This document shows positions 29,515-57,933 of a stretch of DNA of 64,000 nucleotides, piece by piece (the first letter of the stretch is position 1; the number at the start of each line of letters is the position of its first letter). Source of the DNA: a virus; IMG/VR virus record IMGVR_UViG_3300045988_126140, positions 69,599 to 133,598 of that record; one strand, given 5' to 3'. The notes beneath the pieces are model-generated. The model saw only the letters and a program-made list of their open reading frames with translations. It searched no databases and had not been told where the DNA came from. The translations under genes and the position numbers were made by a program.

Positions 29515-29562
29515 TCTTATATTACTATATTAACGAAATTATATTAAAAATTACCTATGATT
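29515..29562 (-). promoter_or_regulatory. class-2 bipartite promoter-like element (copy c) with mini-ORF
   Basis: Minus strand CATAGGTAATTTTT-N9-TCGTTAATAT, register 29559 to 29536 = 23 nt. Followed by SD and ATG AAT GTA TGA (29498..29487). Confidence 0.5.
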
Positions 29563-29781
29563 TTATTTCTTTTTATTTTTAATTATAGCGTCGTGAATTA
29601 CTACTATCATTATTAGTATAATCATAGGAAGAAACATAATTCCTGTTAATGTTATTATAAAAGCTACCTCTCCAAATGCTTCACCAACTATAACTGAATA
29701 TTTTAAAGCTTTAAATAATATAAATGCAGTTATCACAGCTCCTGATAATGTTGCACTATTTTTACCAGCATATCTCCACAT
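29563..29781 (-). CDS. small membrane protein (2-3 TM; holin-like size)
   Basis: 72 aa hydrophobic ORF with SD AAGGAG, downstream of two tandem class-2 elements. Confidence 0.55.
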   Translation of the reverse strand: MWRYAGKNSATLSGAVITAFILFKALKYSVIVGEAFGEVAFIITLTGIMFLPMIILIMIVVIHDAIIKNKKK

Positions 29782-29809
29782 AATATCAACTCCTTTTTAT
29801 TTATTTCTT

Positions 29810-29852
29810 ATTTATGTATTAACATAACTGTATCAAAAATTACCTATGAATT
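29810..29852 (-). promoter_or_regulatory. class-2 bipartite promoter-like element (copy d)
   Basis: Minus strand CATAGGTAATTTTT-N9-ATGTTAATAC, register 29848 to 29825 = 23 nt. Confidence 0.55.
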
Positions 29853-29934
29853 ACAAAAAATATGTATGTCCTCCAAGATTTTTATTAAGCTTCTTTAATA
29901 CCATTACAAAAACACTCCGAATATATGTGTTATT

Positions 29935-29976
29935 TTATATAATTAACAACTAATAATGAAAAATTACCTATGAATT
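29935..29976 (-). promoter_or_regulatory. class-2 bipartite promoter-like element (copy e)
   Basis: Minus strand CATAGGTAATTTTT-N9-TTGTTAATTA, register 29972 to 29949 = 23 nt. Confidence 0.45.
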
Positions 29977-29996
29977 ACATTATTTTTAATATATAT

Positions 29997-34544: not shown

Positions 34545-35002
34545 AGTAAAATTTTTCTAATTTTTTCATTTTACATTTTTTACCATTTATTCAATTTCCC
34601 CTAATAATCTAAAGTAATTTGTCTATTTTCCTTTATTTTCCTAAAGCGTCTACACTAAAATGTTCTACGGTTTACCTTTATTACCCAATACTATACAACC
34701 GTTGCAATAACTGTATCCTATACCTATAGTGGGTATATTGTAAAGCGTGAAACGGTTGAAACTGCTACATTCTTCTGTTTTCTTCTATTTGTGTATACCT
34801 ATGTATGGTATTCAATCCTAGTTATATCAACACTTCTATTGTTTTCCTTTGCATTTTCCTAAAGCTTACAACCGTTGATAATGCTAGATAGTTAATAAAT
34901 ATACCTATGATAATTAAGATAATAAATCATAATGTTAATTTACATTAATTAATTAAACTATTCTCTTCTGTTCTCTTTACTATATAAACCATGCATATAT
35001 TT

Positions 35003-35013
35003 TGTCGAATACT
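35003..35013 (-). repeat. AGTATTCGACA repeat (inverted copy; contains TGTCGAA)
   Basis: One of four copies (35003, 35340, 35372, 35553). Confidence 0.6.
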
Positions 35014-35339
35014 CTAAAGCTAGTAATATCAACAACTACAGTATTTTATAATAACTTTACAATATAAAACAATCTTTATATTTTCCCTAATTAAATAAAG
35101 CTAATCCTTGATTTACCTTAATATTTTAAAGGAGATATTATCATTCTGCTTTATTTAATTAAGTTAAACTTATTAATTAATACCAACTTTATTTATTAAA
35201 CTTTAAAATCAATTTTAAAATGGAGTATTCCATAAAAATAATTTTGTACTATATACTTTTTTATAGCTTTACTAAAATAAGTATATAGTACTATTCACTT
35301 TAATAAAATTCGTGACCCTATTTTCTACTATCAATAAGT

Positions 35340-35352
35340 AAAGTATTCGACA
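35340..35352 (+). repeat. AAAGTATTCGACA repeat
   Basis: Exact 13-mer, repeated at 35372. Confidence 0.6.
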
Positions 35353-35371
35353 TAATGCACTTTACTTATAT

Positions 35372-35384
35372 AAAGTATTCGACA
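35372..35384 (+). repeat. AAAGTATTCGACA repeat
   Basis: Exact 13-mer, 32 bp after the previous copy. Confidence 0.6.
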
Positions 35385-35552
35385 CTTGCTTTCACTATAT
35401 CAATTATTTTTTATGTAAGAATTATCTAATATGATACAAATATATTTTAATATATAAATTATTTTTTATGTAAAGAATTAATTATTTAGAGGGCGTAAAC
35501 TTTAATAAATAAAGTGACCATATTTTTTACTATCACTTTTTAAAGTAAAACT

Positions 35553-35565
35553 TGTCGAACACTTT
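35553..35565 (-). repeat. AAAGTGTTCGACA repeat (inverted, 1 mismatch)
   Basis: The plus strand reads TGTCGAACACTTT. Confidence 0.55.
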
Positions 35566-35787
35566 AATAATTGACTGTGGAGTCTATCAATTGCCTTGTT
35601 TTTTAAAGTGTTAATTGTCGGACTATCATATAAATTTATTTTTATGTAAAAATTTAATTTTATAATAAGAAAATCCAACACAACTAAAATATAGCTTAAA
35701 CTGTTGATATTACTAACTTGTAGCGTTTTTACTTATCATTTTTCTATCTATATATTTTTTAAGAAAAAAATAAATTTCAAAAAATTG

Positions 35788-35817
35788 TTGACAAATTAAA
35801 CTAGAACGTGATATTAT
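35788..35817 (+). promoter_or_regulatory. sigma-A-type promoter
   Basis: TTGACA-18-TATTAT with TG extension. First of two tandem promoters opening the rightward arm. Confidence 0.6.
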
Positions 35818-35869
35818 ATAAACATAAACAACAACAAAAAAATAATTAATAAAAAATTAAAAAAAGTTG

Positions 35870-35898
35870 TTGACAAAATAGACGACAAGTGATAACAT
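35870..35898 (+). promoter_or_regulatory. sigma-A-type promoter
   Basis: TTGACA-17-TAACAT with TG extension, preceded by the 15-mer at 35839. Confidence 0.55.
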
Positions 35899-35982
35899 TA
35901 AAGTATAAGTATTAGACAAGGGAGAACGCCCAACCGTTCATAAAGTAACAATAAAAATAATTAATAAATAGGAGTGGTAAAT

Positions 35983-36342
35983 ATGAAAACAAGAAATCCA
36001 AAGAACTTAGTTAAAAGATATGGAAATCTTTGCGAATTAGAAAACACTGTATCAGATTGTTATTTAGGAAATTCAAGTTTCTATATGTTATCTGACGGTA
36101 GATACTTGAATGCCGAATCTGATGGTAGTTACAGAGCAGTCGACCATAGAATAATTTTTGGAGCTACAAAAATAAGTGCATACGATAATGACGCTTTTGG
36201 AAAATTACAAAGAAATTACCAACTTATTAGAATAGTTCCAGAGTGTGAAACTATAATGTTAGATAAAAAGCAGAAGATAACATTAGAACAACAAAGAGAA
36301 CTTGACAACCTTGGTTTTGACATAGAATATTATTGGGAATAA
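35983..36342 (+). CDS. hypothetical protein
   Basis: ATG 35983 lies 8 nt after AGGAG; the ORF-track GTG at 35974 is unlikely. The stop sits in a hairpin followed by AGCTC. Confidence 0.7.
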   Translation: MKTRNPKNLVKRYGNLCELENTVSDCYLGNSSFYMLSDGRYLNAESDGSYRAVDHRIIFGATKISAYDNDAFGKLQRNYQLIRIVPECETIMLDKKQKITLEQQRELDNLGFDIEYYWE

Positions 36343-38422: not shown

Positions 38423-38497
38423 ATAATTAATAATACTGCTTATAAGAACATAAGCAGTATAGCTCAAAATGATTATATAAATTATTAATAAAAACTA

Positions 38498-39134: not shown

Positions 39135-39163
39135 TTGACAACTTATGAATGATAGTATATAAT
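39135..39163 (+). promoter_or_regulatory. sigma-A-type promoter
   Basis: TTGACA-17-TATAAT. Confidence 0.7.
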
Positions 39164-39202: not shown

Positions 39203-39517
39203 ATGAATAAAAAAGAATTAAGAACAATAGTAAAAGGTTTAGAAGGATATAAAATAGTTTTAACAAAAGAAGAATATAGAAAAGAAGGAAGAAAAAACTT
39301 CCCTAAAAATCCTTTAGAAATAACTGTTGAAGAAATAACAAGAGAAGAATATGAAAAAATATTCTCTAGTGTAAACTTCTTTATTGAAACATTTGGAGGG
39401 ACTGAAAGAATTTATAAAAGTTATACTTTAGCAGGTTATATACCTACTAAATTAGTAAGTACAAGTCCTAATAAAGAAATTAAAATTGTAAGAAGAATAT
39501 CTATTGAAAGATATTAA
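39203..39517 (+). CDS. hypothetical protein
   Basis: 104 aa. SD AAAGGAG. Stop TAA abuts the 15-mer. Confidence 0.7.
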   Translation: MNKKELRTIVKGLEGYKIVLTKEEYRKEGRKNFPKNPLEITVEEITREEYEKIFSSVNFFIETFGGTERIYKSYTLAGYIPTKLVSTSPNKEIKIVRRISIERY

Positions 39518-39574: not shown

Positions 39575-39610
39575 AAAGGTTTACTGGTTCATCCTTTAAA
39601 AACCAGTCGT
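39575..39610 (+). ncRNA. covarying stem-loop with conserved 11-nt loop (copy 1)
   Basis: AAAGGTTT ACTGGTT cATCCTTTAAA AACCAGT (stem 39583..39589 / 39601..39607), followed by the 15-mer. Confidence 0.5.
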
Positions 39611-39681
39611 AAAAATAATTAATAAATTTTTTAAAAAGCTTTTGACAATGATAATAAAATATATTAATTGGAGGTTTTAAA

Positions 39682-39918
39682 ATGAACAACAATTTAATAA
39701 GATTAAGAAGTTTAATAGGGAGCGAATTAGATTATGATGATATAATTTGTGCAATGATAGATAAAGACGAAGAAGTAATAATCGATAACGTAAATCGTAG
39801 TAGCAACTTTGAAGAATATGGACTTTGCAATTTGTATCTAGTATATTACAACGACCCAATAAGTAGGACATATGGCATATGGGTTGATGTTGATAATATA
39901 ATACGTGTAATATCATAA
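39682..39918 (+). CDS. hypothetical protein
   Basis: 78 aa acidic ORF with SD GGAGG. A mirror ORF on the minus strand was rejected. Confidence 0.6.
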   Translation: MNNNLIRLRSLIGSELDYDDIICAMIDKDEEVIIDNVNRSSNFEEYGLCNLYLVYYNDPISRTYGIWVDVDNIIRVIS

Positions 39919-39989
39919 GGGCGTTAAGCCCTGGTTCTTAGTCATCAAAATGATGACAGAATATATTAATATTTTGGAGGTAATAATAT

Positions 39990-40220
39990 ATGCGTATAGA
40001 AGGTTATATATTGGACTGTGATAATAATAACTTAGCTAATAGCGTATTAGAATATTTAAAAAGAAAAACAAATAATTTAACTTATAAATATGAAGAGGAT
40101 ATTTACAGTTTATTTGTAAAAGGTGATATAGTATCAAATGATACAGAAATATATATTAACAATTTTATAGATTTTTTAGAAAATAATAATATGTGTTTTA
40201 TGGGTATGTTTGGGGAGTAA
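39990..40220 (+). CDS. hypothetical protein
   Basis: 76 aa ORF with SD GGAGG. Confidence 0.6.
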   Translation: MRIEGYILDCDNNNLANSVLEYLKRKTNNLTYKYEEDIYSLFVKGDIVSNDTEIYINNFIDFLENNNMCFMGMFGE

Positions 40221-40343
40221 TTCCTCAAGTTCTAGATTGTCTAAAATGATACTAAAAATAATTAATAATACTGCCTATATTTATAGGTGATATTGCTCAA
40301 AACTATCAAATGATAGTAAATAATATTAAAGGGGATGGAATAT

Positions 40344-41168
40344 ATGAACGAATTACAAATAAATAATAAATTAGTTGCTACTATACCAAGTTACGAAATT
40401 GCTAAAATGATGGATAGAAGACATAGCGATGTATTAAGAATGTTGGAAGGGAGTGAAAAACCTAAAGTTATCGGAATAATACCAGTTATAGAGGAGAACG
40501 TAGAACTACACTTATCCGATTATTTTATTAAATCTACATTCATAACAAGTCAAAATAAAAAAGTAACTTGTTATGAATGTACGCGAATGGGTTGTGATAT
40601 ATTAGCGAATAAAATGACAGGTGAAAAGGGAATATTATTTACTGCGAAATATGTTAAACGTTTTAGAGAGATGACAGAATATATTGATAATCAAATACAA
40701 CAATTGTCACCAGAAGACCAAGCTGTATTAAATATAATAAATGCAAATGATAAACTTGATAAAGCATTAGCCATAAAGGATTACAAAGATATCATAGAAA
40801 AGCCTTTATTGCAAGAAATAGATAAAATTAAACCATTAGCTCAAAAATTTGAAGCATTTTTAAAAGATGATGGATTAATTGATATAAATACATTTGCTAA
40901 AACATTAGGGATAAAAAATCTTGGAAGAAATAATATGTATAAATATCTTAGAGATAATCACTACATAGATAAAAATAATTATGCTATGCAGAGATATATT
41001 AATCAAAAATTATTTATTCTTAAACCAAGGGGGTATAAAGAAAATTATTATGGTGAGCGTATGCTAATATTTAAAACTTTTATAACTAAAAAGGGATTGG
41101 CTTATCTATTAGGAAAATTAGTCGAAGACGGATATATAACTTTTACAGATGATAATAAAAATAATTAA
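40344..41168 (+). CDS. antirepressor (Rha N-terminal domain plus KilAC/ANT C-terminal domain)
   Basis: LVATIPSYEIAKMMDRRHSDVLRMLE is Rha-like. C-terminal INTFAKTLGIKNLGRNNMYKYLRDNHYI is KilAC-like. ATG 40344 is better spaced from the SD than 40335. The stop lies inside the 15-mer. Confidence 0.7.
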   Translation: MNELQINNKLVATIPSYEIAKMMDRRHSDVLRMLEGSEKPKVIGIIPVIEENVELHLSDYFIKSTFITSQNKKVTCYECTRMGCDILANKMTGEKGILFTAKYVKRFREMTEYIDNQIQQLSPEDQAVLNIINANDKLDKALAIKDYKDIIEKPLLQEIDKIKPLAQKFEAFLKDDGLIDINTFAKTLGIKNLGRNNMYKYLRDNHYIDKNNYAMQRYINQKLFILKPRGYKENYYGERMLIFKTFITKKGLAYLLGKLVEDGYITFTDDNKNN

Positions 41169-41179
41169 TAAATATTATT

Positions 41180-41206
41180 GACTGGAGTTTTATCCAGTCT
41201 TTTTTA
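41180..41206 (+). terminator. intrinsic terminator
   Basis: GACTGG..CCAGTC, then TTTTTTATT. Confidence 0.75.
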
Positions 41207-41679
41207 TTGTCTATAAAATGATAATGATTTTCATTAACATTAAATATTAACTCCAGAAGTTATTTTTATAAAAGCTCAATAAAATCAACCTCTTAAACGC
41301 CCTTCTAAGGCGTTTTAAAATGATTAAGGTATAAATACCTTGTAGGCTATCGAATTCCTTTATAATGGATTATATAGGATATTTTATATTTTTATCTATA
41401 ATTGATAATACTTTTCATTTATATATTTATTCTCATTTAAAAATGATACTAAAATATATTAATTTATGAATTGATAATAAATATCAAATAAAATTATTTG
41501 TTATTGAGAATAATAATCATAACTATAAAAATTAATTTATATATAAAATAATATATTTTTAAAAAAATTTATATTTATTATTGATTTATAAAATTGAATA
41601 TGATATTATATAATCATAGTAGTAAATAAAAAGTTTTAAAAGATTATAAAAATAATTAATAAAATTAATAAAAAAGCTC

Positions 41680-41708
41680 TTGACAACGATAGTTAAATCA
41701 TATATAAT
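41680..41708 (+). promoter_or_regulatory. sigma-A-type promoter
   Basis: AGCTCTTGACA-17-TATAAT. Confidence 0.7.
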
Positions 41709-41740
41709 AATATTAGATAATTAAATAAGGAGTTGATATT

Positions 41741-42253
41741 ATGTTAAGTTTACAAAAAGCAAATAAAATATTGGAATTAGTTAAATCAGAAGGTATAAAG
41801 CTAGATAATATAAAATTAATAAAAGATGATAAATTTTCATATAGTACAAATGGTGTGATAACAATTCAAAATTGTAATTTTAACATAAATTCTAAATGGT
41901 ATGAATTTATGATTAAATACTTAGAAAAAGAATATAATTTAGACTCTAATGTTTATATGTTTTATGACTTTTTAGAAACATTTTCATTTTTACATGAGGT
42001 AGGGCACGCAACACAAGGATTAAAGAATAATGAAAAATATGATGATGAATACTTTTTATATAAAAATACAATATATAAAAGTTATGAAGAAGCTTACAAA
42101 ACTTATAGAAATTTGACACTAGAAAAACAAGCTGATAAATTTGCGGTATCATTCATTAAAAATCATAAACTTGAAATCTGGGCAATAATGAATGATATAA
42201 GTGTAAAAGAGGCTGAAGAAGAGTCTCAATTTTGGGAAACAAATTTATATTAA
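41741..42253 (+). CDS. putative zinc metallopeptidase (HExxH)
   Basis: FLHEVGHATQG contains HEVGH. 170 aa. Family not resolved. Confidence 0.45.
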   Translation: MLSLQKANKILELVKSEGIKLDNIKLIKDDKFSYSTNGVITIQNCNFNINSKWYEFMIKYLEKEYNLDSNVYMFYDFLETFSFLHEVGHATQGLKNNEKYDDEYFLYKNTIYKSYEEAYKTYRNLTLEKQADKFAVSFIKNHKLEIWAIMNDISVKEAEEESQFWETNLY

Positions 42254-42278
42254 TCCTAATAGCTCGAGCTATTAGGAT
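42253..42278. repeat. perfect 26-bp palindrome ATCCTAATAGCTC|GAGCTATTAGGAT
   Basis: 13-bp arms with no loop, centred on CTCGAG. It overlaps the last base (42253) of the stop codon of 41741..42253 and contains AGCTC. Confidence 0.85.
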
Positions 42279-42313
42279 AATTATAAAAACAATTAATAAA
42301 TTTAAAAAAGCTC

Positions 42314-42342
42314 TTGACAAAATAAAATGAAGTGTGATATAA
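42314..42342 (+). promoter_or_regulatory. sigma-A-type promoter
   Basis: AGCTCTTGACA-17-TATAAT with TG extension. Confidence 0.7.
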
Positions 42343-42375
42343 TTAAAATATAAAATAAATAAAGGAGTTGATAAT

Positions 42376-42651
42376 ATGAAAACAAATAGAGATAGAATAT
42401 TAGAAAAATTAAAGAAGGAAGGGTTTATAATAGGTTGTTATGACAGTAATATAGATAAATTAAATTATAACAACATTAAAAAAGTACTAGACGATATTCC
42501 TTTTGGAAGTACTGATATACAAGTATCCCTAAATAGAAAAAAATACATTGTCGAAGTTTCTGATGTAGACAATGAGTATGATTTTAAAATGACAGAAAAA
42601 AACACTTATTTAGACAGATATGGAGATGATGAATATTATGAAAAATGGTAA
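42376..42651 (+). CDS. hypothetical protein
   Basis: 91 aa. SD. Stop in the hairpin AAGGGA..TCCCTT followed by AGCTC. Confidence 0.7.
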   Translation: MKTNRDRILEKLKKEGFIIGCYDSNIDKLNYNNIKKVLDDIPFGSTDIQVSLNRKKYIVEVSDVDNEYDFKMTEKNTYLDRYGDDEYYEKW

Positions 42652-42714
42652 GGGAATTAATCCCTTCCAGCTCTTAAAAATAATTAATAAGATAATTGAA
42701 AGGGGACAAATGAT

Positions 42715-43569
42715 ATGAAATATTTTAAAAATGTAAACTCTTTAGAAGACTTAAAAAAACAATTTAAAAAATTAGCTTTTAAACATCATCCAGATAGAGG
42801 TGGAGACGCTGAAATAATGAAAGCTGTCAATAATGAATATGATATGTTATTTCCTATTTGGAAAAATAGAGATAATATAAAAACAGAGGAAACAGCAGAA
42901 AGCACAAGAAATGAATTTTATACTGCAAATGGTTGGAAGGGTGACAAATATAATAGAGATTTAGATATTAAAACAATAGCAAAATTAGTTAGAAAACAAT
43001 TAAAAGAAGAATTTCCAGATTGTAAATTTAGTGTTACAAAAAATGAATTTTCTGGAGGTTGTAGTTTAACTGTAATTGTAAAAGAAACTCCTAAAAGTGT
43101 TTATGCAAATGATGATAAAAATATAATCAATTATGATATATCACCGTATATCGAATATCCAGAATTATCAATATATGGTAAAGAATTAGTTATAAGAGTT
43201 TGGGAAATAATAAATCAATATAGATATTCTGATTGTGACTATCAAATAGATTATTTTGACGTTAATTTTTATCCATCTTTAAACCTTGGTAATTATGATG
43301 AAACAGTCAAAGTGGTTGAAAAAGTTAAAAAATCTAAAAGACAAGAAAAAAATAATAAAAATAATAATAAATTTGATATAATAGAAAACCTTGAAAAAAA
43401 TGGAATAGAATTATATTTTGAAGGTAAACCATCAGAAGATTTTAGAAATATGTTGAAACAATTTGGATTTAGATGGAATAGAAATAAAAAATGTTGGTAT
43501 GCTAAAAGAGATTCAGATATTTTAATAGTATTTGAAAATTTACAAAATCAATATAAATTAATAGGATAA
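42715..43569 (+). CDS. J-domain (DnaJ-like) protein, paralog 2
   Basis: KKLAFKHHPDRGGD carries HPD. C-terminal LKQFGFRWNRNKKCWYAKR block as in paralog 1. Confidence 0.75.
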   Translation: MKYFKNVNSLEDLKKQFKKLAFKHHPDRGGDAEIMKAVNNEYDMLFPIWKNRDNIKTEETAESTRNEFYTANGWKGDKYNRDLDIKTIAKLVRKQLKEEFPDCKFSVTKNEFSGGCSLTVIVKETPKSVYANDDKNIINYDISPYIEYPELSIYGKELVIRVWEIINQYRYSDCDYQIDYFDVNFYPSLNLGNYDETVKVVEKVKKSKRQEKNNKNNNKFDIIENLEKNGIELYFEGKPSEDFRNMLKQFGFRWNRNKKCWYAKRDSDILIVFENLQNQYKLIG

Positions 43570-43574
43570 TATTA

Positions 43575-43608
43575 TAGGTTTATTGGTTTATCCTTTAAAA
43601 ACCAGCAT
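43575..43608 (+). ncRNA. covarying stem-loop with conserved 11-nt loop (copy 2)
   Basis: AGGTTTA TTGGTT tATCCTTTAAA AACCAG (stem 43583..43588 / 43600..43605), followed by the 15-mer. Confidence 0.5.
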
Positions 43609-43675
43609 AAAAATAATTAATAAATTTTTTAAAAATTCTTGACAATGATAGTAAAAATAATTAATAAGATAGCAC

Positions 43676-43705
43676 TTGACTTTTATATGGGTTGAGTGCT
43701 ATAAT
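43676..43705 (+). promoter_or_regulatory. sigma-A-type promoter
   Basis: TTGACT-18-TATAAT with TG extension. Confidence 0.65.
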
Positions 43706-43732
43706 ATAATATAAGATAACTGAAAGGGGAAA

Positions 43733-44227
43733 ATGATGATGAATAATATTAAAAGATTCTTAAAATTATTAAATGACGAAACAATAGAAGGCAAAATAAT
43801 AGACTGCTATTGCACTCTTCATAAACAAGCATGGTATGATGGAAAAATAAAAACTAAAATAGTACTAGATTTAAATGGAGTAATAACAGCTACAAATGAA
43901 GTAAAAGATAATCAATTACTAATAATAGAACTCAATGAATATGTAGAAGTACCAGAGACAGAATTTGGTAACATTGAATTACAAGATGATTATCAAGAAT
44001 TTGTAAATTATCTAATGGAAGAATGTGAAGAAATATTTGAAAGTGATATAGATAAACAGCAGTATATTTGGGATAATGCAACATGGAATGAATATAAAGA
44101 TTTCAATGGATTAGGTTATGAGGATGAAGAACAATATGTTTGGAATTATATTTGTGATATGGAAGATGCAGATTTTATATATAATGTTATATCAAAATTA
44201 ATAAGCCAACTAGAAATGATGGTATAA
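43733..44227 (+). CDS. acidic hypothetical protein (paralog of 45645..46193)
   Basis: Shared N-terminus (K/E)(R/K)FL..LND(E/D).I.G.I..Y..LH...W.DG.IK..I.L..G. Very D/E-rich C-terminal half. Confidence 0.7.
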   Translation: MMMNNIKRFLKLLNDETIEGKIIDCYCTLHKQAWYDGKIKTKIVLDLNGVITATNEVKDNQLLIIELNEYVEVPETEFGNIELQDDYQEFVNYLMEECEEIFESDIDKQQYIWDNATWNEYKDFNGLGYEDEEQYVWNYICDMEDADFIYNVISKLISQLEMMV

Positions 44228-44303
44228 ACTATTATATGGTAGTATGGAAATATCTATACTACCATATAGAAAAAAGATAATAAAAATAATTAATAAATAG
44301 CTC

Positions 44304-44333
44304 TTGACAAATATATCTACAATGATATATAAT
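44304..44333 (+). promoter_or_regulatory. sigma-A-type promoter
   Basis: AGCTCTTGACA-18-TATAAT. Confidence 0.65.
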
Positions 44334-44365
44334 ATAACTATAATAATAAATAAGGAGTTGATAAT

Positions 44366-44617
44366 ATGAAACAATGCACAGGAGATTATTTATATAAAGG
44401 TTTCTTAATTAATTTTAGCGAATACGACCAAGCTTGGAGATTAGAACCTACATTACAATTAACAGGAGATGATTCCGACACAGCAATAGATTTTGCTATA
44501 GAGTATAACAATGATAGTAAAAAATTTAGAACTATCAATCAAGCTAAAAGATATATAAAAGATAATTACAATGAATTAGTATTAGAAATTAAAAAATTAT
44601 ATGAGGATTTTAAATAG
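44366..44617 (+). CDS. hypothetical protein
   Basis: 83 aa. SD AAGGAG. Stop in the hairpin GAGGA..TCCTC followed by AGCTC. Confidence 0.7.
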   Translation: MKQCTGDYLYKGFLINFSEYDQAWRLEPTLQLTGDDSDTAIDFAIEYNNDSKKFRTINQAKRYIKDNYNELVLEIKKLYEDFK

Positions 44618-44664
44618 TCCTCAAGCTCAAAAGTCAATGATGATAAAAATAATTAATAAAATCA

Positions 44665-44694
44665 TTGACAAATAATAACATAACATGATATACT
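44665..44694 (+). promoter_or_regulatory. sigma-A-type promoter
   Basis: TTGACA-18-TATACT with TG extension. Confidence 0.65.
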
Positions 44695-44723
44695 TAATAT
44701 ATAAAATTGATTGGAGGAATTAA

Positions 44724-45575
44724 ATGATGGAAAAATACATTAAAAGTCCGATGAATTACACAGGGGGCAAAGGTAAATTATTAAGTCAAATATTACCACT
44801 ATTTCCAAAAAATATAAATACTTTTGTAGATTTATTTACAGGTGGTTGTAATGTAGCAGTAAATGTATCAGCTAATAAAATAATAGCTAATGATTTATGC
44901 ACTCAAGTAATAAATACATATAAAGGAATACAAAATAATACTACAGAAAAAGCTATCGAAATGATAGAAAAAATAATTAACGAATATGATTTAAGTAAAG
45001 AAAACAAAGAAGGTTATTTAGAATTAAGAAAAGCTTACAATGATGGTAATAAAGAATGGCATATATTCTATACTTTATTAGCTTATTCATTCAATAATCA
45101 AATTAGATTCAATAAAAAAGGCGAATTTAATATGCCTTTTGGAAAGGGTAGAAGTAGTTTTAACTCAACTTTAAAAAAGAAATTTGAAGACTTTTCAGAC
45201 GCAATTCATAATAAAAATATAAAATTTACAAATAACGATTTTAAAAAATTAAATATAGATAAATTAAAGAATGATGATTTTGTATATTTAGACCCACCAT
45301 ACTTAGTAACAGAAGCTACTTACAATACAGGTTGGAATGAAGAAACTGAAAAAGAATTATTATCATTATGTGACAGATTAAATGAAAAAGGTATAAAATT
45401 TGCAATATCTAATGTATTAGAACATAATGGAAGTAAAAATGAAATATTAATAAACTGGAGCAAAAATTATAATATAAACTACTTAGATTATAATTATTCA
45501 AATTGTAATTATCATAAAAAAGATAATGGACATAAAAGTATAGAAGTTTTAATTACTAACTACAAAAATAATTAA
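44724..45575 (+). CDS. dam: N6-adenine DNA methyltransferase (Dam/D12 class), orphan
   Basis: N-terminal NYTGGKGKLL..FVDLFTGG and catalytic VYLDPPY. No adjacent restriction gene. The stop lies inside the 15-mer. Confidence 0.8.
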   Translation: MMEKYIKSPMNYTGGKGKLLSQILPLFPKNINTFVDLFTGGCNVAVNVSANKIIANDLCTQVINTYKGIQNNTTEKAIEMIEKIINEYDLSKENKEGYLELRKAYNDGNKEWHIFYTLLAYSFNNQIRFNKKGEFNMPFGKGRSSFNSTLKKKFEDFSDAIHNKNIKFTNNDFKKLNIDKLKNDDFVYLDPPYLVTEATYNTGWNEETEKELLSLCDRLNEKGIKFAISNVLEHNGSKNEILINWSKNYNINYLDYNYSNCNYHKKDNGHKSIEVLITNYKNN

Positions 45576-45583
45576 TAAAACCC

Positions 45584-45612
45584 TTGACAATGATAGTTAA
45601 ACATGATATACT
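45584..45612 (+). promoter_or_regulatory. sigma-A-type promoter
   Basis: TTGACA-17-TATACT with TG extension. Confidence 0.65.
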
Positions 45613-45644
45613 TAATATATAAAAATAAAAAGGTGGTTGATATT

Positions 45645-46193
45645 ATGAATAAAACTGAAAAATTTTTAGGATTTTTAAATGATGACAAAATATTTGGTGA
45701 AATACAAGAATTATATCACGAACTACATCTAAATTTATGGACTGACGGTCATATAAAACATGATATAATATTAACTATAGACGGAGATGTTGAATATACA
45801 AGTTATATAGGTAATCAGTCTAGAATGGATGTATATGAAGGTGATGCAATACTTATATGTACTATGGACGAATATCCAGAAGTATTTGACGAAGATTTAG
45901 GGGAATTATCAGAAGTTGATAATTATAATGAATACCTTGAATGGTTAGAAAAAGATGCTAGAATCAATTATGAATATGAAACAACAGAAGAAGTTAAAGA
46001 GCATATTGAAGAGTATGCTGACGACTGGGAAAAATATTCAGAATTTGATTTAATAACATACGAAGAACAGCAACTTTTAGTTTGGCAATTTAATTGTGAA
46101 CAATACGACTGGGATTATATAAACGATAAAATTTATCAAAGAATAGACGAGTTAGAAGAAATAGGGGAAAATTACTTTAAAAGAGGGTTTTAA
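45645..46193 (+). CDS. acidic hypothetical protein (paralog of 43733..44227)
   Basis: ATG 45645 after AAAGGTGG; the ORF-track start at 45603 lies inside the promoter. D/E-rich C-terminal half. Stop in the hairpin AGAGGG..CCCTCT followed by AGCTC. Confidence 0.7.
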   Translation: MNKTEKFLGFLNDDKIFGEIQELYHELHLNLWTDGHIKHDIILTIDGDVEYTSYIGNQSRMDVYEGDAILICTMDEYPEVFDEDLGELSEVDNYNEYLEWLEKDARINYEYETTEEVKEHIEEYADDWEKYSEFDLITYEEQQLLVWQFNCEQYDWDYINDKIYQRIDELEEIGENYFKRGF

Positions 46194-46241
46194 ATAACCC
46201 TCTAGCTCAATCAATGATGATAAAAATAATTAATAAAATTA

Positions 46242-46270
46242 TTGACTTATATAATATAGTATGTTATATT
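46242..46270 (+). promoter_or_regulatory. sigma-A-type promoter
   Basis: TTGACT-17-TATATT with TG extension. The -10 region is duplicated by the 26-bp tandem repeat. Confidence 0.55.
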
Positions 46271-46300
46271 TAATATATAATATAGTATGTTATATTTAAT
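46249..46300 (+). repeat. perfect 26-bp tandem duplication ATATAATATAGTATGTTATATTTAAT x2
   Basis: Units at 46249..46274 and 46275..46300, then a partial third unit. Confidence 0.85.
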
Positions 46301-46330
46301 ATATAATATAAATAAAGGGGTGTTGATAAT

Positions 46331-46633
46331 ATGGATGAAAATGTATGTGCGAATTGTGATTATAATAAGATGTGGGGAGGTAATTGTGAATATGAACAAG
46401 AAGAAAAATGCATATATGCAACTGCTAGATATTTAACTCATGATGAACGTAATAAGATAGAAAAGAAATTAATTATGATTGATTATTTATTAAATGATAT
46501 AGTCGAAATCGACAAAGAGAATACTATCGAGGATTTAACAGATAAGATTTCAGATGTATTGTGTGAAATGGAATATGAAGTCAAATATAGAATTAGAGAC
46601 TTTGAATATATGAAAAAGGAGGGTTTTAAATAA
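46331..46633 (+). CDS. hypothetical Cys-rich protein
   Basis: N-terminal CANCDY..GGNCEYEQEEKC. Stop in an 8-bp hairpin followed by AGCTC. Confidence 0.7.
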   Translation: MDENVCANCDYNKMWGGNCEYEQEEKCIYATARYLTHDERNKIEKKLIMIDYLLNDIVEIDKENTIEDLTDKISDVLCEMEYEVKYRIRDFEYMKKEGFK

Positions 46634-46688
46634 CCTTCCAGCTCTTGAAATGATAGTAAAAATAATTAATAAATTTTTTAAAAAGCTC

Positions 46689-46717
46689 TTGACATCTTAG
46701 TTAAAATCATATATGAT
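46689..46717 (+). promoter_or_regulatory. sigma-A-type promoter
   Basis: AGCTCTTGACA-17-TATGAT. Confidence 0.6.
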
Positions 46718-46755
46718 AATATTAAGATTAAGATAATTGAAAGGGGTTTTATAAT

Positions 46756-47193
46756 ATGAGCAAATATATAACATTACCTAGTACAATAACAATGACTACT
46801 TTAGCATTAGCAAAAAGTTTATCAAGTAAACCAGTATCAACATCACCAGTAATAACATACCTTACTCCAGCAACTGTAAAACCACACATAAGCAAAGTAA
46901 TTTGCACTCTAAAAGCATCTAGTACTCCAGCAACAATGTTGCCTTATCTTGTAGGTTATAAAATAGCATTGCGTGGTACTCACCACAAATACGTATGTGT
47001 GCATAGTGTCAAAATTCCTACATCTTTGTTGATAGTATCAACAACATCAACTGGTATTATTACTTATACAGGTATGAGTTACAGTGGTGGTTATGCACAT
47101 TATACAGTACATGTATTTCCATACACTAGCACAACAACATTAACTGGTTTAATAAAGATGCTAAAAAGTGGTATGTATACATTACTACCATAA
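46756..47193 (+). CDS. Thr/Ser-rich basic protein lacking D, E, N, Q and W
   Basis: 145 aa ORF with its own promoter and SD (AAAGGGG). It is the only long ORF in any frame here. Composition is unlike all neighbours. Confidence 0.55.
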   Translation: MSKYITLPSTITMTTLALAKSLSSKPVSTSPVITYLTPATVKPHISKVICTLKASSTPATMLPYLVGYKIALRGTHHKYVCVHSVKIPTSLLIVSTTSTGIITYTGMSYSGGYAHYTVHVFPYTSTTTLTGLIKMLKSGMYTLLP

Positions 47194-47228
47194 TATAAAA
47201 GGTTTGCAGGTAATCCTTTAAAACCTGC
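47194..47228 (+). ncRNA. covarying stem-loop with conserved 11-nt loop (copy 3)
   Basis: AAAGGTTT GCAGGT aATCCTTTAAA ACCTGC (stem 47206..47211 / 47223..47228), followed by two overlapping 15-mers (47242, 47255). Confidence 0.5.
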
Positions 47229-47332
47229 TAAAAAGATTATCAAAATAATTAATAAAAATAATTAATAAATTTTTTAAAAGCTCTTGGCAATGATAGTAAA
47301 AATAATTAATAAATAATATCAAGGGGGTAAAA

Positions 47333-48115
47333 ATGATGGGGAAAAATATTAATAGAATAGGAGAGAGAAATATAAATACATTTGGAAGTGAAATGGTTAT
47401 AGTAGAATATAGAATGAATAGAGATATCGACGTTTATTTTCCAGAATATGACTGGACTTTTAAAAATGCGAGATATGAAACTTTTAAAAAAGGAAACATT
47501 AAATGTCCTTATGATAGAAGTATATATGGTGTTGGTTACATTGGTGAGGGTAATTATAAGGTAAGTGAAAATCGCAAACTAACTAAAGTTTATAGCACTT
47601 GGCAAAGCATGCTACAAAGATGTTATAGTAATAAATTTCATAAGAAACAACCTACTTATATTGGTTGTGATGTTTCTGAAGAATGGCATAATTTTCAAAA
47701 CTTTGCCAAATGGTATTATGAAAATTATTATGAGGTAGAAGGAGAAAAAATGCATTTGGATAAAGATATTTTATATAAACATAATAAGATATACTCTCCT
47801 AGGACTTGCATATTTGTACCTCAAACTATTAATGGTTTATTTATTAAAAGGGATAATAATAGAGGTAAATCAGTTATAGGGACAACGCCTCGTAAAAATG
47901 GTAAATATCAAGTAAAATGTTGTTTAATAAATCCAGAAACAGGTAAGTCTAAATATGAATATTTAGGGATTTATGACACACAAGAAAAAGGGTTTAAAAT
48001 ATATAAGTATTATAAAGAGAAAAATATTAAACAAGTTGCTGACTATTACAAAGATTTAATACCATACAAATTATATCAAGCTTTATATGAGTATGTTGTT
48101 GAAATAGATGATTGA
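47333..48115 (+). CDS. HNH_3-like/AP2-like homing-endonuclease-family protein, paralog 1 of 6
   Basis: Blocks NRIGE..NTFGSEM, Y(S/N)TW.(S/N)MLQRCY, EWHNFQNFAKWY, HLDKDIL.KHNKIYSP.TCIFVPQTIN (HNH_3-like, with the usual His position reading K) and a C-terminal AP2-like GKYQV....NP.TGKSK.EYLG.YDT.E..F..YK. Confidence 0.55.
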   Translation: MMGKNINRIGERNINTFGSEMVIVEYRMNRDIDVYFPEYDWTFKNARYETFKKGNIKCPYDRSIYGVGYIGEGNYKVSENRKLTKVYSTWQSMLQRCYSNKFHKKQPTYIGCDVSEEWHNFQNFAKWYYENYYEVEGEKMHLDKDILYKHNKIYSPRTCIFVPQTINGLFIKRDNNRGKSVIGTTPRKNGKYQVKCCLINPETGKSKYEYLGIYDTQEKGFKIYKYYKEKNIKQVADYYKDLIPYKLYQALYEYVVEIDD

Positions 48116-48169
48116 AAATTTAAAATGATACCAAAAACTATTAATAAATAATATTAAGGGGTGGTAAAA

Positions 48170-48769
48170 ATGATGAAAGAAACTTGGACTGAAAAAGAAA
48201 TAAGAAGTTATATGAAGAACTTTGTTAATGACATGGACGAAGAAGACAAAATGGTAATAGGGGATATAATTGATGCAATTCCAATATCAGTAGACGGACG
48301 ACTTAAAAATAGTCTAGGTTACTTCTCTGGTATATATAAAAGAAGTGGAGAATTTGTAGAACCTGTAAAATTTAAATTTTCCAAACGTATTAACTGTTAT
48401 GACGATAACACTATAAAACATATTATAAATCACGAACTTTTACACTTATTATCAGACAAGAAGTATGGTAAAAGTACAAGCCATAACAAAGAATGGAAAG
48501 AACTTTGCTGTAAATATAGGATAAATGATGATGAATTCTTTACTCCTAATTTAGAATTAGAAAAAGATTATCACCGTTATCATATATATTGTAATGAATG
48601 TTATAAATTAGTAGGTGTAAGAGACAGATTATCAAAAGAGAAAATAATTCAATTGTTATTATATGGAAGACATCAAGATGATTATGGTAAATTAAGAATA
48701 TATGATAATAAAGAAAAAGGATATATTAAATTAAACAATATAATGGTAAATGATGGTGAAAATAATTAA
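48170..48769 (+). CDS. SprT-like zinc metalloprotease
   Basis: GYFSG..FKFSKR.. and HIINHELLHLL (HExxH), then GK.TSHNKEWK..C. ATG 48170 after GGGGTGG. The stop lies inside the 15-mer. Confidence 0.6.
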   Translation: MMKETWTEKEIRSYMKNFVNDMDEEDKMVIGDIIDAIPISVDGRLKNSLGYFSGIYKRSGEFVEPVKFKFSKRINCYDDNTIKHIINHELLHLLSDKKYGKSTSHNKEWKELCCKYRINDDEFFTPNLELEKDYHRYHIYCNECYKLVGVRDRLSKEKIIQLLLYGRHQDDYGKLRIYDNKEKGYIKLNNIMVNDGENN

Positions 48770-50533: not shown

Positions 50534-51346
50534 ATGGGAAGAAAATCAATAAATAGAACAGGGGAGAAAGGAATTAATAATTTTGGAAGTGAGATGATAA
50601 TTGTTAATTCTTATATGAAATTCAATGATAAATATAAAAGAAATTATACTTATGTAGACGTTTATTTCCCAGAGTATAATTGGACTTTTAAAGGTGTAAG
50701 ATATGAGAGTTTCAAAAATGGTAATGTCAAATGCCCATATGAGAGAACTGTGTTTGGAATAGGTTATGTTGGCGAAGGAAAGTATAAGGTAAGTGAAAAT
50801 GGCAAAGACACTAAGAGTTATAATACTTGGCGTAATATGTTGCAAAGATGTTATAATGAAAAATGTCAAGAGAAAAATCCAACTTATAAAGGTTGTACTG
50901 TATGTGATGAGTGGCATAATTTTCAGAACTTTGCGAAATGGTATGAAGACAATTATTATGAGATAGAAGGTGAGAGAATACATTTGGACAAAGATATTTT
51001 ATGTAAAGGCAATAAAATATATACTCCAGAAACTTGTGTTTTTGTACCACAGACAATTAATATGTTATTTACTAAAAGGCAAAATGATAGAGGGGAATCA
51101 GTTATTGGAACAAGCTATCATAAAAGAGATAAAAAATATCAAGCATATTGTAGTTTAATTAATCCTAAAACTGGTAAATCTAAAGATAAATACTTGGGAT
51201 ATTATGATACAGAAATAGAAGCATTTGAGATATACAAATATTATAAAGAACGTAATATTAAACAAGTAGCTGATTATTATAGAGATTTAATACCAGAAAG
51301 ATTATACATGGCATTGTATAATTATGAAGTTGAAATTACAGACTAA
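50534..51346 (+). CDS. HNH_3-like/AP2-like homing-endonuclease-family protein, paralog 2 of 6
   Basis: Same block structure as 47333..48115, with its own SD AAGGAGG. Confidence 0.55.
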   Translation: MGRKSINRTGEKGINNFGSEMIIVNSYMKFNDKYKRNYTYVDVYFPEYNWTFKGVRYESFKNGNVKCPYERTVFGIGYVGEGKYKVSENGKDTKSYNTWRNMLQRCYNEKCQEKNPTYKGCTVCDEWHNFQNFAKWYEDNYYEIEGERIHLDKDILCKGNKIYTPETCVFVPQTINMLFTKRQNDRGESVIGTSYHKRDKKYQAYCSLINPKTGKSKDKYLGYYDTEIEAFEIYKYYKERNIKQVADYYRDLIPERLYMALYNYEVEITD

Positions 51347-53463: not shown

Positions 53464-54240
53464 ATGGGAAATAAAATAGATAGAACAGGAGAAATAAATT
53501 GTAATACGTTTGGAAGTGAAATGATAATTACGGAATATAGAAGTGCAAAAGACATTGATGTTTATTTTTCAGAATATAACTGGACTTTTAAAAATGTTCG
53601 ATATAGTATTTTTAAAAATGGTAATATGAAATGTCCGTATGAAAGAAGACATTATAAAATTGGTTATTTAGGTGAAGGTGAGTATAAAATGAGTGAAAAT
53701 CGTAAACATACCAAAGTTTATAATACTTGGCATCATATGTTAGAAAGATGTTATGATAAAAAATTTCAAGAGAAACACCCCACTTACAAAGATTGTAAAA
53801 TATCTGAAGAATGGCATAACTTTCAGAATTTTGGCAATTGGTATAATGAAAATTATTATGAGGTAGAAGGCGAGATTATGTGTTTAGATAAAGACATTCT
53901 TGTTAAGCATAACAAGATATATTCACCAGATACTTGTATATTTGTACCTCAAATAATTAATACTTTATTTGTTAAAAGAGATAATGATAGAGGTGAATCA
54001 TGTATAGGTACAAGTCTTAAAGATGGAAAATATCAAGTAAGTTGTAATTTAATTAATCCTAAAACTGGAAAATCAAAAAGCGAATATTTAGGAATTTATG
54101 ATACAGAACTAGAAGCATTTGAGGTTTATAAGTATTATAAAGAAAAGAATATAAAACAAGTAGCTGATTATTATAAAGAACAAATACCATATAAACTTTA
54201 TAACGCTTTATACAAGTATAAAGTTGAAATAAATGATTAA
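53464..54240 (+). CDS. HNH_3-like/AP2-like homing-endonuclease-family protein, paralog 3 of 6
   Basis: Same block structure as the other paralogs. Confidence 0.55.
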   Translation: MGNKIDRTGEINCNTFGSEMIITEYRSAKDIDVYFSEYNWTFKNVRYSIFKNGNMKCPYERRHYKIGYLGEGEYKMSENRKHTKVYNTWHHMLERCYDKKFQEKHPTYKDCKISEEWHNFQNFGNWYNENYYEVEGEIMCLDKDILVKHNKIYSPDTCIFVPQIINTLFVKRDNDRGESCIGTSLKDGKYQVSCNLINPKTGKSKSEYLGIYDTELEAFEVYKYYKEKNIKQVADYYKEQIPYKLYNALYKYKVEIND

Positions 54241-55470: not shown

Positions 55471-55492
55471 TTAATAAAAAAGGGGGATTAAA

Positions 55493-56269
55493 ATGGGGAA
55501 AGTAATAGATAGAACAGGAGAAAAGAATTATAATACATTTGGAAGTAAAATGATAATAGCGAATTATAATGGATGTATGGATATTGATATATATTTCCCA
55601 AAGTATGATTGGACTTTTAAAAATGCAAAATATCAACATTTTAAAAATGGAGATATAAAATGTCCTTATGATAGAAGTATATATGGTGTTGGTTACATTG
55701 GTGAGGGTAATTATAAGGTAAGTGAAAATCGCAAACTAACTAAAGTTTATAGCACTTGGCAAAGCATGTTACAAAGATGTTATTCTGAAAAATTTCAAGA
55801 GAAACATCCTACATATATTACTTGTGAAGCATCTGAAGAATGGCATAATTTTCAAAACTTTGCTAAATGGTACAATGAGAATTACTATGAAATTGAAGGC
55901 GAAAGAATGGATTTAGATAAAGATATTTTAGTAAAGCACAATAAAATATATTCTCCAGAGACTTGTATATTTGTACCACAAACTATTAACAAATTATTTG
56001 TTAGATGCGATAGAAGTAGAGGTGAATCAGTTATAGGTACAACTCCTGTAAATGGTAAATATCAAGTAAAATGTTATTTACTTAATCCTAAAACAGGAAA
56101 ATCTAAAAATGAATATTTAGGCTATTATGATAGTCAAGAAAAAGCATTTGAGGTATACAAATACTATAAAGAAAAGAATATAAAAGAAGTCGCTGATTAT
56201 TTTAAAGATGAAATTCCAGTTAAACTTTATAACGCTTTATATTCATATGAAGTTGAAATTACAGATTAA
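55493..56269 (+). CDS. HNH_3-like/AP2-like homing-endonuclease-family protein, paralog 4 of 6
   Basis: Same blocks. 111 nt (55658..55768) are identical to 47501..47611 in paralog 1. Confidence 0.55.
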   Translation: MGKVIDRTGEKNYNTFGSKMIIANYNGCMDIDIYFPKYDWTFKNAKYQHFKNGDIKCPYDRSIYGVGYIGEGNYKVSENRKLTKVYSTWQSMLQRCYSEKFQEKHPTYITCEASEEWHNFQNFAKWYNENYYEIEGERMDLDKDILVKHNKIYSPETCIFVPQTINKLFVRCDRSRGESVIGTTPVNGKYQVKCYLLNPKTGKSKNEYLGYYDSQEKAFEVYKYYKEKNIKEVADYFKDEIPVKLYNALYSYEVEITD

Positions 56270-56297
56270 TAATAATGTATAAAGGAGGTTATATAAT

Positions 56298-57063: not shown

Positions 57064-57121
57064 TAAACTTATTGACGAATAATATTGAAAACTAAATAAT
57101 TAATAAAAAGGAGGAGAAAAT

Positions 57122-57904: not shown

Positions 57905-57933
57905 AAATAATTAATAAAATTTATTAGAAGGTA

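Follow-up and report, generated by a model that had tools for sequence, protein, structure and literature searches.

A compact pseudoknot, known until now as a module of wcaG RNA, occurs in three stand-alone copies in the early-gene arm of a large phage

We describe here three short elements in a 64,000-nucleotide (nt) stretch of viral DNA (positions 69,599 to 133,598 of IMG/VR record IMGVR_UViG_3300045988_126140; the whole of this stretch is called the window in the following), each of which is a compact, stand-alone RNA pseudoknot of the H type with a length of about 30 nt and represents a unit of a fold previously known only inside the wcaG RNA. The window covers the early-gene arm of a large phage whose host is Gram-positive (Firmicutes). 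A preliminary description had listed the three elements as stem-loops and judged them to be a functional structure rather than fortuitous hairpins; they are present in the sequence exactly as listed, and that judgement is borne out by stems that covary within the window and far more so in relatives. The scans of flank and loop given below led to a layout with two stems (S1 and S2, each with a 5' arm a and a 3' arm b) and three linkers (L1 to L3), namely S1a (3 nt, AGG), UUU, S2a (5–8 nt of free sequence), 0–3 nt, S1b (CCU), UUAAA(A) and S2b. The three copies and their parts are as follows.

39575–39607, + strand: copy 1, AAAGG-TTT-ACTGGTT-CAT-CCT-TTAAA-AACCAGT; 24.6 bits with the covariance model, also found in the generic module scan
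Parts of copy 1: S1a AGG 39577–39579 (extendable to AAAGG from 39575); L1 UUU 39580–39582; S2a ACUGGUU 39583–39589; L2 CAU 39590–39592; S1b CCU 39593–39595; L3 UUAAA 39596–39600; S2b AACCAGU 39601–39607
43574–43605, + strand: copy 2, ATAGG-TTTA-TTGGTT-TAT-CCT-TTAAA-AACCAG; 20.6 bits with the covariance model
Parts of copy 2: S1a AGG 43576–43578; L1 UUU(A) 43579–43582; S2a UUGGUU 43583–43588, the outer pair being a U.G wobble; L2 UAU 43589–43591; S1b CCU 43592–43594; L3 UUAAA 43595–43599; S2b AACCAG 43600–43605
47198–47228, + strand: copy 3, AAAGG-TTT-GCAGGT-AAT-CCT-TTAAA-ACCTGC; 40.0 bits with the covariance model, also found in the generic module scan
Parts of copy 3: S1a AGG 47200–47202; L1 UUU 47203–47205; S2a GCAGGU 47206–47211; L2 AAU 47212–47214; S1b CCU 47215–47217; L3 UUAAA 47218–47222; S2b ACCUGC 47223–47228

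The covariance model was built from 15 equal-length copies of other phages, with no window sequence included, and when the 64 kb were searched with it, as had been recommended beforehand, only these three copies were found, the next best match scoring 10 bits. The generic pseudoknot-module scan detected copies 1 and 3, at 0.03 chance matches expected per window in Markov-shuffled sequence, and the exact 10-mer ATCCTTTAAA has three occurrences in the window, all confined to the three hairpins. Compared with copy 1, copy 3 has two fully compensated pairs (A-T to G-C and T-A to A-T) and has lost one pair; the compensation first reported for its stem is thereby upheld, but the stem is not "completely different", as had been stated, since a C.GG/CC.G core is retained. 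In copy 2 a C-to-T change relative to copy 1 gives the U.G wobble, and the outermost pair is lost. The "invariant 11-nt loop" likewise holds inside one subfamily but not across the family. Folding energies of the hairpins alone were unremarkable (–5.3 to –8.6 kcal/mol, with z-scores of –0.2 to –1.6), and the case for the element is therefore one of comparative evidence, not of stability.

That comparative evidence came from relatives, where the preliminary description had made further copies and covariation the deciding point, and both were found. An exact scan of IMG/VR with the pattern AGGTTT-N6-9-ATCCTTTAAAA gave matches with much noise among them, and many of the variable segments were complementary to the bases past the loop while having quite different sequences (GAGGT/ACCTC, GCGGT/ACCGC, ACGGT/ACCGT, CCGGT/ACCGG, TGTGAGT/ACTCACA and GTGGGT/ACCTGC are examples). 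Altogether 44 stand-alone copies were gathered, with 31 distinct S1/S2 combinations. In the model alignment 98.5% of the stem cells were paired and 16 cells were changed on both sides, values that none of 500 shuffles reached. It had also been suggested that CCUUU in the loop pairs with AAAGG in the 5' flank, and this pairing found strong support, as flank and loop triplets change in concert (AGG:CCU versus GAG:CUC among the stand-alone copies). The covariance model picked up variants in which both had changed jointly, such as AAGAG-UUUU-GCGGU-AA-CUCUU-UAAAA-ACCGC (stem GCGGU/ACCGC) in L015, a few hundred bases from two standard copies; L-numbers are the labels of viral loci or contigs in this analysis. 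A scan for GAGTTT...CTCTTTAAAA then uncovered a second subfamily (GAG/CUC) with many different stems, including GATAGTT, GGTAGTT, GGTCGTT, GGCAGTT, GGCAATT, GGTGGC and others. Viral contigs were scanned for all four flank/loop combinations, the mixed ones serving as controls, with about 120 loci listed per scan; valid hairpins among the distinct matches, counted among the matches listed, were distributed as follows.

AGG flank with CC loop: valid hairpin in 19 of 89
GAG flank with CUC loop: valid hairpin in 17 of 102
AGG flank with CUC loop (mixed): valid hairpin in 3 of 98
GAG flank with CC loop (mixed): valid hairpin in 5 of 103

Five of the eight mixed-combination matches among those listed retain a complementary loop triplet (AUCCUCUUUAAAA, GCCUC... 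or CUCCUUUAAAA), while in three related ones (L453, L455 and L490) pairing is found only in another register, and L279 is dubious. It is from these results that the two-stem layout given above follows; the junction linker L2 ranges from 0 to 3 nt between subfamilies. The same covariation bears on an idea of the preliminary description, namely that the loop CCUUU could mimic the anti-Shine–Dalgarno sequence and pair with, or titrate, the Shine–Dalgarno (SD) sequences of mRNAs. CCUUU is complementary to AAAGG, and the SD sequences of the window phage are AAAGGAG-like, but the triplet is already paired within the pseudoknot and switches to CUC, CCA, CUG, CAG or CUA together with its flank partner, and the motif is found beside tRNA genes and in phages in which no SD is seen at the genes (such as the L031/L043/L090 group and Polaribacter phage P12002L). 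The idea fails because CCU is free to change if the flank follows, the identity of the triplet not being the conserved feature, and we consider it improbable in the extreme.

One of the subfamily 2 matches, L161, was the 5' hairpin of a wcaG RNA (RF01761, 94 bits). The wcaG motif was described in 2010, from cyanophage and marine sequences, as a probable cis-regulator that may be a riboswitch (Weinberg et al. 2010, PMC2864571) and is listed in Rfam as RF01761. We collected 105 distinct wcaG RNAs, and both outer hairpins show the same pseudoknot layout, each RNA consisting of two modules of a 3-nt flank, UUU, stem, U(U), complementary triplet, A-rich linker and stem. In the 3' module (module 2), 92 of 94 flank/loop triplets pair, in five types (UGG:CCA, 65; AGG:CCU, 11; CAG:CUG, 8; CUG:CAG, 4; UAG:CUA, 4), compared with a mean of 56 and a maximum of 65 in shuffles. 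Some first modules read GAGUUU...CUCUUUAAAA, exactly as in the stand-alone subfamily 2 (L161 and L171), and both forms are phage-borne and lie on the sense strand, in untranslated leaders. The wcaG RNA differs in its length of 98 nt, in its central hairpin and in its conserved linkers (UGGUGCGGA... and GUGGCGAGCCUG), which are absent from the window element, and in being located in 5' leaders of cyanophage metabolic genes, whereas the stand-alone knot follows stop codons or adjoins tRNAs and is carried by phages whose hosts are Firmicutes, Bacteroidetes or unknown. The RF01761 model (linkers UGGUGCGGA and GUGGCGAGCC), which gave 94 bits with L161 as positive control, had no match in the window at the gathering threshold (42 bits) and none at E≤10 around copy 1, and the wcaG linkers are not in the copy sequences. 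As the layout of the window copies fits both modules of the 105 wcaG RNAs, the window copies are stand-alone units of the fold previously known only inside that RNA. Two further subfamily 2 knots (L160, 6270–6310, and L259, 3071–3110) are followed by UGGUGG... in place of the wcaG linker UGGUGCGGA and may be wcaG variants or intermediates between the stand-alone and tandem forms.

By protein clustering, the carrier loci fall into several unrelated phage groups; these have no flanking sequence in common. The cultured and complete Polaribacter phage P12002L (48.7 kb; L125 here) has a single copy, behind the second gene of a long leftward early operon and between gp81 and gp80 (47449–47482 of the phage record), and a BLAST search with the 32-nt consensus against cultured phages gave convincing matches only in the Polaribacter phages P12002L and P12002S. 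Among 185,579 species genomes of bacteria and archaea the strict pattern was matched 8 times, in each case on a contig of a metagenome-assembled genome, and the element is therefore phage-specific. It is carried by phages of at least three host phyla and is, on its own, uncatalogued in Rfam 15, with no match at the stand-alone motif either in a gathering-threshold scan of the whole window or in E-value scans of the surroundings of copy 1 and of L015, L122, L124, L031, L191, L219 and L125. A full-text literature search for ATCCTTTAAA returned only primers and unrelated papers, and a topical search on phage pseudoknots found no description of the element. In P12002L, a weak tRNA-like match was also seen at 501–548 of L125 (about 48140–48190 of the phage record; 28.3 bits, the gathering score being 29), in the non-coding right genome end upstream of the knot-bearing early operon.

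With regard to position, every copy is on the sense strand and within an untranslated spacer, and 30 of the 40 copies with an upstream open reading frame (ORF) begin at most 15 nt past a co-oriented stop codon, most of them at 5–12 nt and with a mode of 6 nt. The placement right after a stop codon, pointed out earlier for two of the window copies, was seen for copies 2 and 3, which start 6 nt past a TAA (43567–43569 and 47191–47193), and proved to be a general property of the family; copy 1 starts 59 nt past the stop at 39515–39517. Because the fold is nearly strand-symmetric, the assignment of a strand must rest on gene orientation and on a few wobble pairs. Single-sided stem transitions among close relatives always gave G.U on this strand and never A.C, as seen for copy 2 versus copy 1, for L086 versus L022 and twice for L100 versus copy 3. 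We read the element as acting as an RNA, on the sense strand of phage early transcripts.

The near symmetry of the fold would also suit a single-stranded DNA element, folding on the lagging-strand template or in recombination and serving a recombinase, nickase or primase, and such a role was speculated upon for the STAXI pseudoknot repeats (Weinberg et al. 2010). XerC/D-type recombinase genes are found 2–4 kb from the motif in the window, L052, L056, L066 and L074, mosaic junctions occur at the module, and with a replication start near the switch in GC skew at ~35–36 kb the motif strand of the window would be the template of the lagging strand. We nevertheless regard this as very unlikely, since G.T pairs in the stems are tolerated on the sense strand only, placement relative to stop codons is strict, every phage group has the motif in the orientation of transcription, the recombinase is missing from the flanks of most loci, and it is the arms, where a recombinase would bind, that vary.

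Downstream of the knot little is held constant. The distance to the next start codon is unconstrained (6–189 nt), many phages carry the knot without a promoter after it, and the genes that follow have no common function, comprising small ORFs, PRPP-synthetase-like, macro-domain-like and HNH endonuclease genes as well as tRNAs. In L074 the order is a TTGACA-17-TATAAT promoter, 7 nt, pseudoknot, 5 nt and tRNA-Ile as the first gene of a tRNA array, and in L209 the pseudoknot occupies the 38-nt spacer between tRNA-Lys and tRNA-Asn; ARAGORN found no tRNA at the motif itself, only adjoining ones. The contexts of distance, tRNAs and promoters argue against a translation signal and fit a signal on the transcript or the transcribing polymerase, whatever lies downstream.

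These observations also bear on whether the knot is a regulatory aptamer, which would bind a small molecule or a phage or host protein and tune its neighbours via translational repression or attenuation, the wcaG RNA being a tandem version. In size and topology the knot is like the smallest riboswitch aptamers, such as preQ1-I, its linker nucleotides are conserved, and in the L031/L043/L090/L033 group it ends 8 nt 5' of the start codon. The module is, moreover, identical to that of wcaG, itself rated a probable cis-regulator and possible riboswitch (Weinberg et al. 2010). Against an aptamer stand downstream genes that have nothing in common, the unconstrained distance to the start codon, the absence of a visible expression platform and the variation of L2 between 0 and 3 nt among subfamilies, which argues against a fixed ligand pocket. 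Taken together, we consider an aptamer possible but doubtful. The group just mentioned is unrelated to the window phage; the knot lies 8 nt before a gene that is PRPP-synthetase-like by its sequence (L031 10296–11249, L040 and L090) and starts with MTSMKIFSGTSNLNLA, and in L043 a different and, from its sequence, possibly macro-domain-like gene (1846–2301) stands behind it. The upstream gene is common to L031, L040, L090 and L043, with a mosaic junction at the knot.

In the window itself, one copy is found in each of three transcription units, behind the first or second ORF after a consensus promoter. The copies have about 60 nt of downstream sequence in common, and an alignment of it confirmed the shared module reported earlier, with the 15-mer AAAATAATTAATAAA followed by T6A4-5 and then (G)CT(C/T)TTG(A/G)CAATGATA. 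Units and modules are arranged as follows.

39135–39163, + strand: promoter of the copy 1 unit, perfect sigma-70-type (12 of 12 consensus positions); order of the unit: promoter, ORF 39203–39517, pseudoknot, ORF 39682–39918
39608–39660, + strand: module after copy 1, with 15-mer AAAATAATTAATAAA 39612–39626, T6A5, TTGACA 39642–39647, then ATGATA
42314–42343, + strand: promoter of the copy 2 unit, perfect consensus; order of the unit: promoter, ORFs 42376–42651 and 42715–43569, pseudoknot
43606–43668, + strand: module after copy 2, with 15-mer 43610–43624, T6A5, TTGACA 43639–43644, ATGATAGT, second 15-mer 43654–43668
46689–46717, + strand: promoter of the copy 3 unit, 11 of 12 consensus positions; order of the unit: promoter, ORF 46756–47193, pseudoknot, HNH/AP2 endonuclease gene 47333–48115
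47229–47313, + strand: module after copy 3, with overlapping 15-mers 47242–47256 and 47255–47269, T6A4, TTGGCA 47284–47289, then ATGATAGT, third 15-mer 47299–47313

The promoter scan found a real promoter at 43676–43705, past the module of copy 2. Downstream of copies 1 and 3 a –10 element is absent according to the same scan, which lists no promoter in the module after copy 1, there being no good –10 box. In the relatives L067, L084, L022, L100 and L052 complete promoters are found downstream of the knots. The module also marks sites of rearrangement. The HNH gene at 47333–48115 is an indel, missing from L067, L056 and L086, with module repeats on either side (47289–47326 and 48124–48161), and in L100 the gene upstream of copy 2 is joined to the downstream context of copy 3, with the junction within the module and the hybrid stem kept by two G.U pairs.

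A common intrinsic terminator, or membership in an intergenic module that was duplicated recently, could account for a position behind stop codons and ahead of promoters and for the ~60 nt that the window copies share downstream, and in the L009/L019/L021 group a T run does follow the stem. In most copies, however, the U-tract is absent, the tails in the window being CGTAAAAA, CATAAAAA and TAAAAAGA, the stems are weak (–5 to –9 kcal/mol), and the copies are unlisted by a terminator scan that detects the canonical terminator at 41180–41199. The motif is also conserved in unrelated phages without shared flanks, and covariation of flank and loop is no feature of a terminator. A plain terminator or duplicated module is thus largely refuted by covariation, scan and conservation, and we hold it to be highly improbable.

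Another reading is structural punctuation, by which the knot, as a mechanically stable structure just past the stop codon, would shield the upstream cistron from 3'-exonucleases or mark a processing site, and would in addition be the stem-loop of a shuffling cassette such as those with PeSL elements. The element is anchored to the upstream stop codon and not to the downstream start, the AT-rich stretch and sigma-70-type promoter behind it (in the window and in L052, L022, L100, L084, L067 and L136) agree with the PeSL layout (PMC4122927), and recombination is evident from the junction within the module in L100 and from indels bordered by module repeats. A generic protective structure would, on the other hand, need no conserved linkers and S1 across phages of different phyla, and it would be expected after many genes, yet there is one copy in P12002L and three among at least 14 promoter-led units in the window; the L074 copy, moreover, lies at the 5' end of a tRNA precursor without an upstream cistron. 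We find this explanation unlikely.

The 15-mer AAAATAATTAATAAA, of which a longer form is AATGATAGTAAAAATAATTAATAAA, is a frequent word in this phage, with 56 sites in the window at ≤1 mismatch where 1.05 would be expected. The sites are always co-oriented with transcription (examples being 35839–35853, 39612–39626 and 47242–47269, with – strand sites within 2957–29420), lie upstream of –35 boxes and directly 5' of SD sequences, and often overlap the preceding stop codon. A second type of hairpin, GAGGGTT-TTAAAT-AACCCTC, contains the stop codon of the preceding ORF in its loop, with AGCTC and the 15-mer module coming next; other hairpins (38433–38468 and 40268–40300) have related AGCTCAAAA tails.

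44599–44628: second hairpin type
46179–46208: second hairpin type
46615–46644: second hairpin type

From position only, we tentatively infer that the knot may protect early transcription from termination in untranslated stretches. It would fold on the nascent transcript upon leaving a translated region and signal to the transcription elongation machinery instead of the ribosome, so that RNA polymerase would continue across the untranslated gap and through the genes or tRNA arrays that follow, an anti-termination or anti-polarity effect similar to that of lambda nut, HK022 put, rrn boxA or the Bacillus EAR RNA. A promoter-proximal position and low copy number are seen both in P12002L, with one copy, and in the window, with one in each of three units. 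In the window phage the knot might have a second role, forming with the AT-rich 15-mer and the promoter box a composite inter-cassette module that could also be a substrate for the recombination that shuffles gene cassettes. Several points weigh against an elongation signal. In L015 consecutive spacers hold three copies, and two are present in L066, which exceeds what a processive signal would need; copy 2 has its own strong promoter downstream, so that read-through is not obviously required there; and the reverse complement of the fold is also pseudoknot-shaped in the generic module scan. The resemblance to boxA is weak, with G1 missing, positions 2–4 covarying with the flank and the match not kept by the wcaG modules, and we know of no antiterminator RNA with this fold.

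Speculating further, we think it conceivable, if far from assured, that the ~30-nt knot is a new phage-specific and self-sufficient regulatory RNA, either an elongation-complex signal or, equally, a minimal aptamer for a ligand or protein, with the wcaG "riboswitch" as its tandem form; solving either the knot or wcaG would then explain both. What began as a three-copy curiosity is a widespread phage RNA family defined by two covarying helices, and it reveals the modular make-up of the long-orphan wcaG RNA, two such knots, and offers experiments a very small unit that is easy to mutate. Should the knot act on elongation or bind a defined partner, it would be among the smallest such signals known and a portable part for phage and synthetic-biology constructs.

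As for the phage, the G+C content of the window is ~25%, and genes run leftward from ~35 kb and rightward from ~36 kb. At this meeting point of the divergent arms (~35000–36000) GC skew and AT skew both change sign, which could be due to a replication origin or simply to divergent transcription. The left arm encodes a portal protein (33% identical to portals of the ~130-kb Clostridioides difficile phages of phiCD211 type), a terminase-like protein, an exonuclease and a phage sigma factor. The right arm, in which the three copies lie, is an early-type region with many small ORFs, also encoding an antirepressor, a Dam methylase, a XerC/D-type recombinase and several paralogous HNH/AP2 endonucleases, and the promoter scan of the window found at least 14 near-consensus sigma-70-type promoters on the + strand. 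Very close relatives were found in IMG/VR as contigs of 86–141 kb from one metagenome (L056, L067, L084, L086, L022 and L100), while near-identical DNA is absent from GenBank phages and PLSDB plasmids, the sole match being 171 bp long and lying within an HNH/AP2 gene. At least six paralogous genes, each of ~260 amino acids, resemble AP2-domain HNH homing endonucleases, with 70–78% mutual DNA identity. An IS605/TnpB-type transposase-like gene (phrog_506, E=7e-129) lies within the structural arm and has homologues in the related contigs L002 and L052, and one gene is made of 15-nt (pentapeptide) repeats. The left arm also has five 50-nt repeats with conserved GTATTAAC ... AATTACCTATGAATTA, near the phage sigma-factor gene (25243–26418), and these could be promoters for that sigma factor.

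47333–48115, 50534–51346, 53464–54240, ~55490–56270, ~57120–57906 and 63792 onward: HNH/AP2 paralogues
8168–9406, – strand: IS605/TnpB-type transposase-like gene
59561–59878: gene of pentapeptide repeats, at least 15 in-register copies
21573–21622, 26983–27032, 29515–29564, 29804–29853 and 29928–29977: 50-nt repeat family, left arm

Several known systems were compared with the element. PeSLs are the stem-loops of composite terminator/promoter cassettes in T4-like phages (PMC2839356, PMC4122927), where they lie upstream of an AT-rich stretch and an early promoter. The element resembles them in standing just 5' of AT-rich DNA and an early promoter of sigma-70 type, and in recurring between the small cassette genes of a plastic early region whose repeats are sites of indels and recombinant junctions. 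PeSLs are, in contrast, simple stem-defined hairpins without conserved loop or pseudoknot and are genome-specific, whereas the knot is common to unrelated phages; the PeSL layout is present in the window, but the promoter box lacks a –10 after copies 1 and 3, and the PeSL family is defined in T4-like myoviruses. STAXI (RF01728; Weinberg et al. 2010) is a repeated pseudoknot near XerC/D integrase, antirestriction and SSB genes, possibly borne by mobile elements; it has a repeated pseudoknot with a XerC/D-type recombinase nearby in common with the window element, but is tandem and enterobacterial, while here the link to the recombinase is loose and there is no Rfam match.

Three further candidates were rejected. 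Integron attC sites were dismissed on account of the absence of RYYYAAC ... GTTRRRY cores in the copies, the nearby recombinase being a generic XerC/D-type phage integrase 2.2 kb away, and a ToxI-like type III antitoxin on account of copies that are single and 3.6–4.0 kb apart, with no toxin family in Pfam scans of the neighbouring ORFs. A CsrA-type GGA loop on the antisense strand was ruled out, as both the orientation and the wobble pairs favour the sense strand.

The preQ1-I aptamer and the luteovirus frameshift knots share topology and size with the element, including a first linker rich in U and a last one rich in A, and the 5–12 nt between stop codon and knot is the distance at which recoding pseudoknots stand from their slippery or stop sites. 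The window element differs in having no slippery sequence, a long S2 and no SD; the reading frame relative to the knot is not constant, and there is therefore no recoding product. For preQ1-I (RF00522) and the other catalogued pseudoknot aptamers, no Rfam match was found in the loci scanned at E≤10 or E≤5.

For boxA, with the consensus GYUCUUUAANA (PMC5725501), AUCCUUUAAAA matches at 9 of 11 positions, G1 and U3 differing, and CUCUUUAAAA of subfamily 2 does better, giving 9–10 of 11 overall. The lead is a weak one, as the positions that match change together with the flank. It is as a single strand that boxA is recognised, whereas positions 2–4 of the knot are paired and covarying, and the fold is different. 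As a further difference, no N-like protein or terminator targets were identified, no search aimed at terminators and Rho-utilisation sites downstream of each copy having been made. In being promoter-proximal, present once or a few times per operon and untranslated, the knot, read as a cis-acting nascent RNA, nonetheless resembles nut, put, boxA and EAR. The nutR site is located just after cro, and antitermination signals are indifferent to the sequence downstream, boxA serving both rRNA and tRNA operons.

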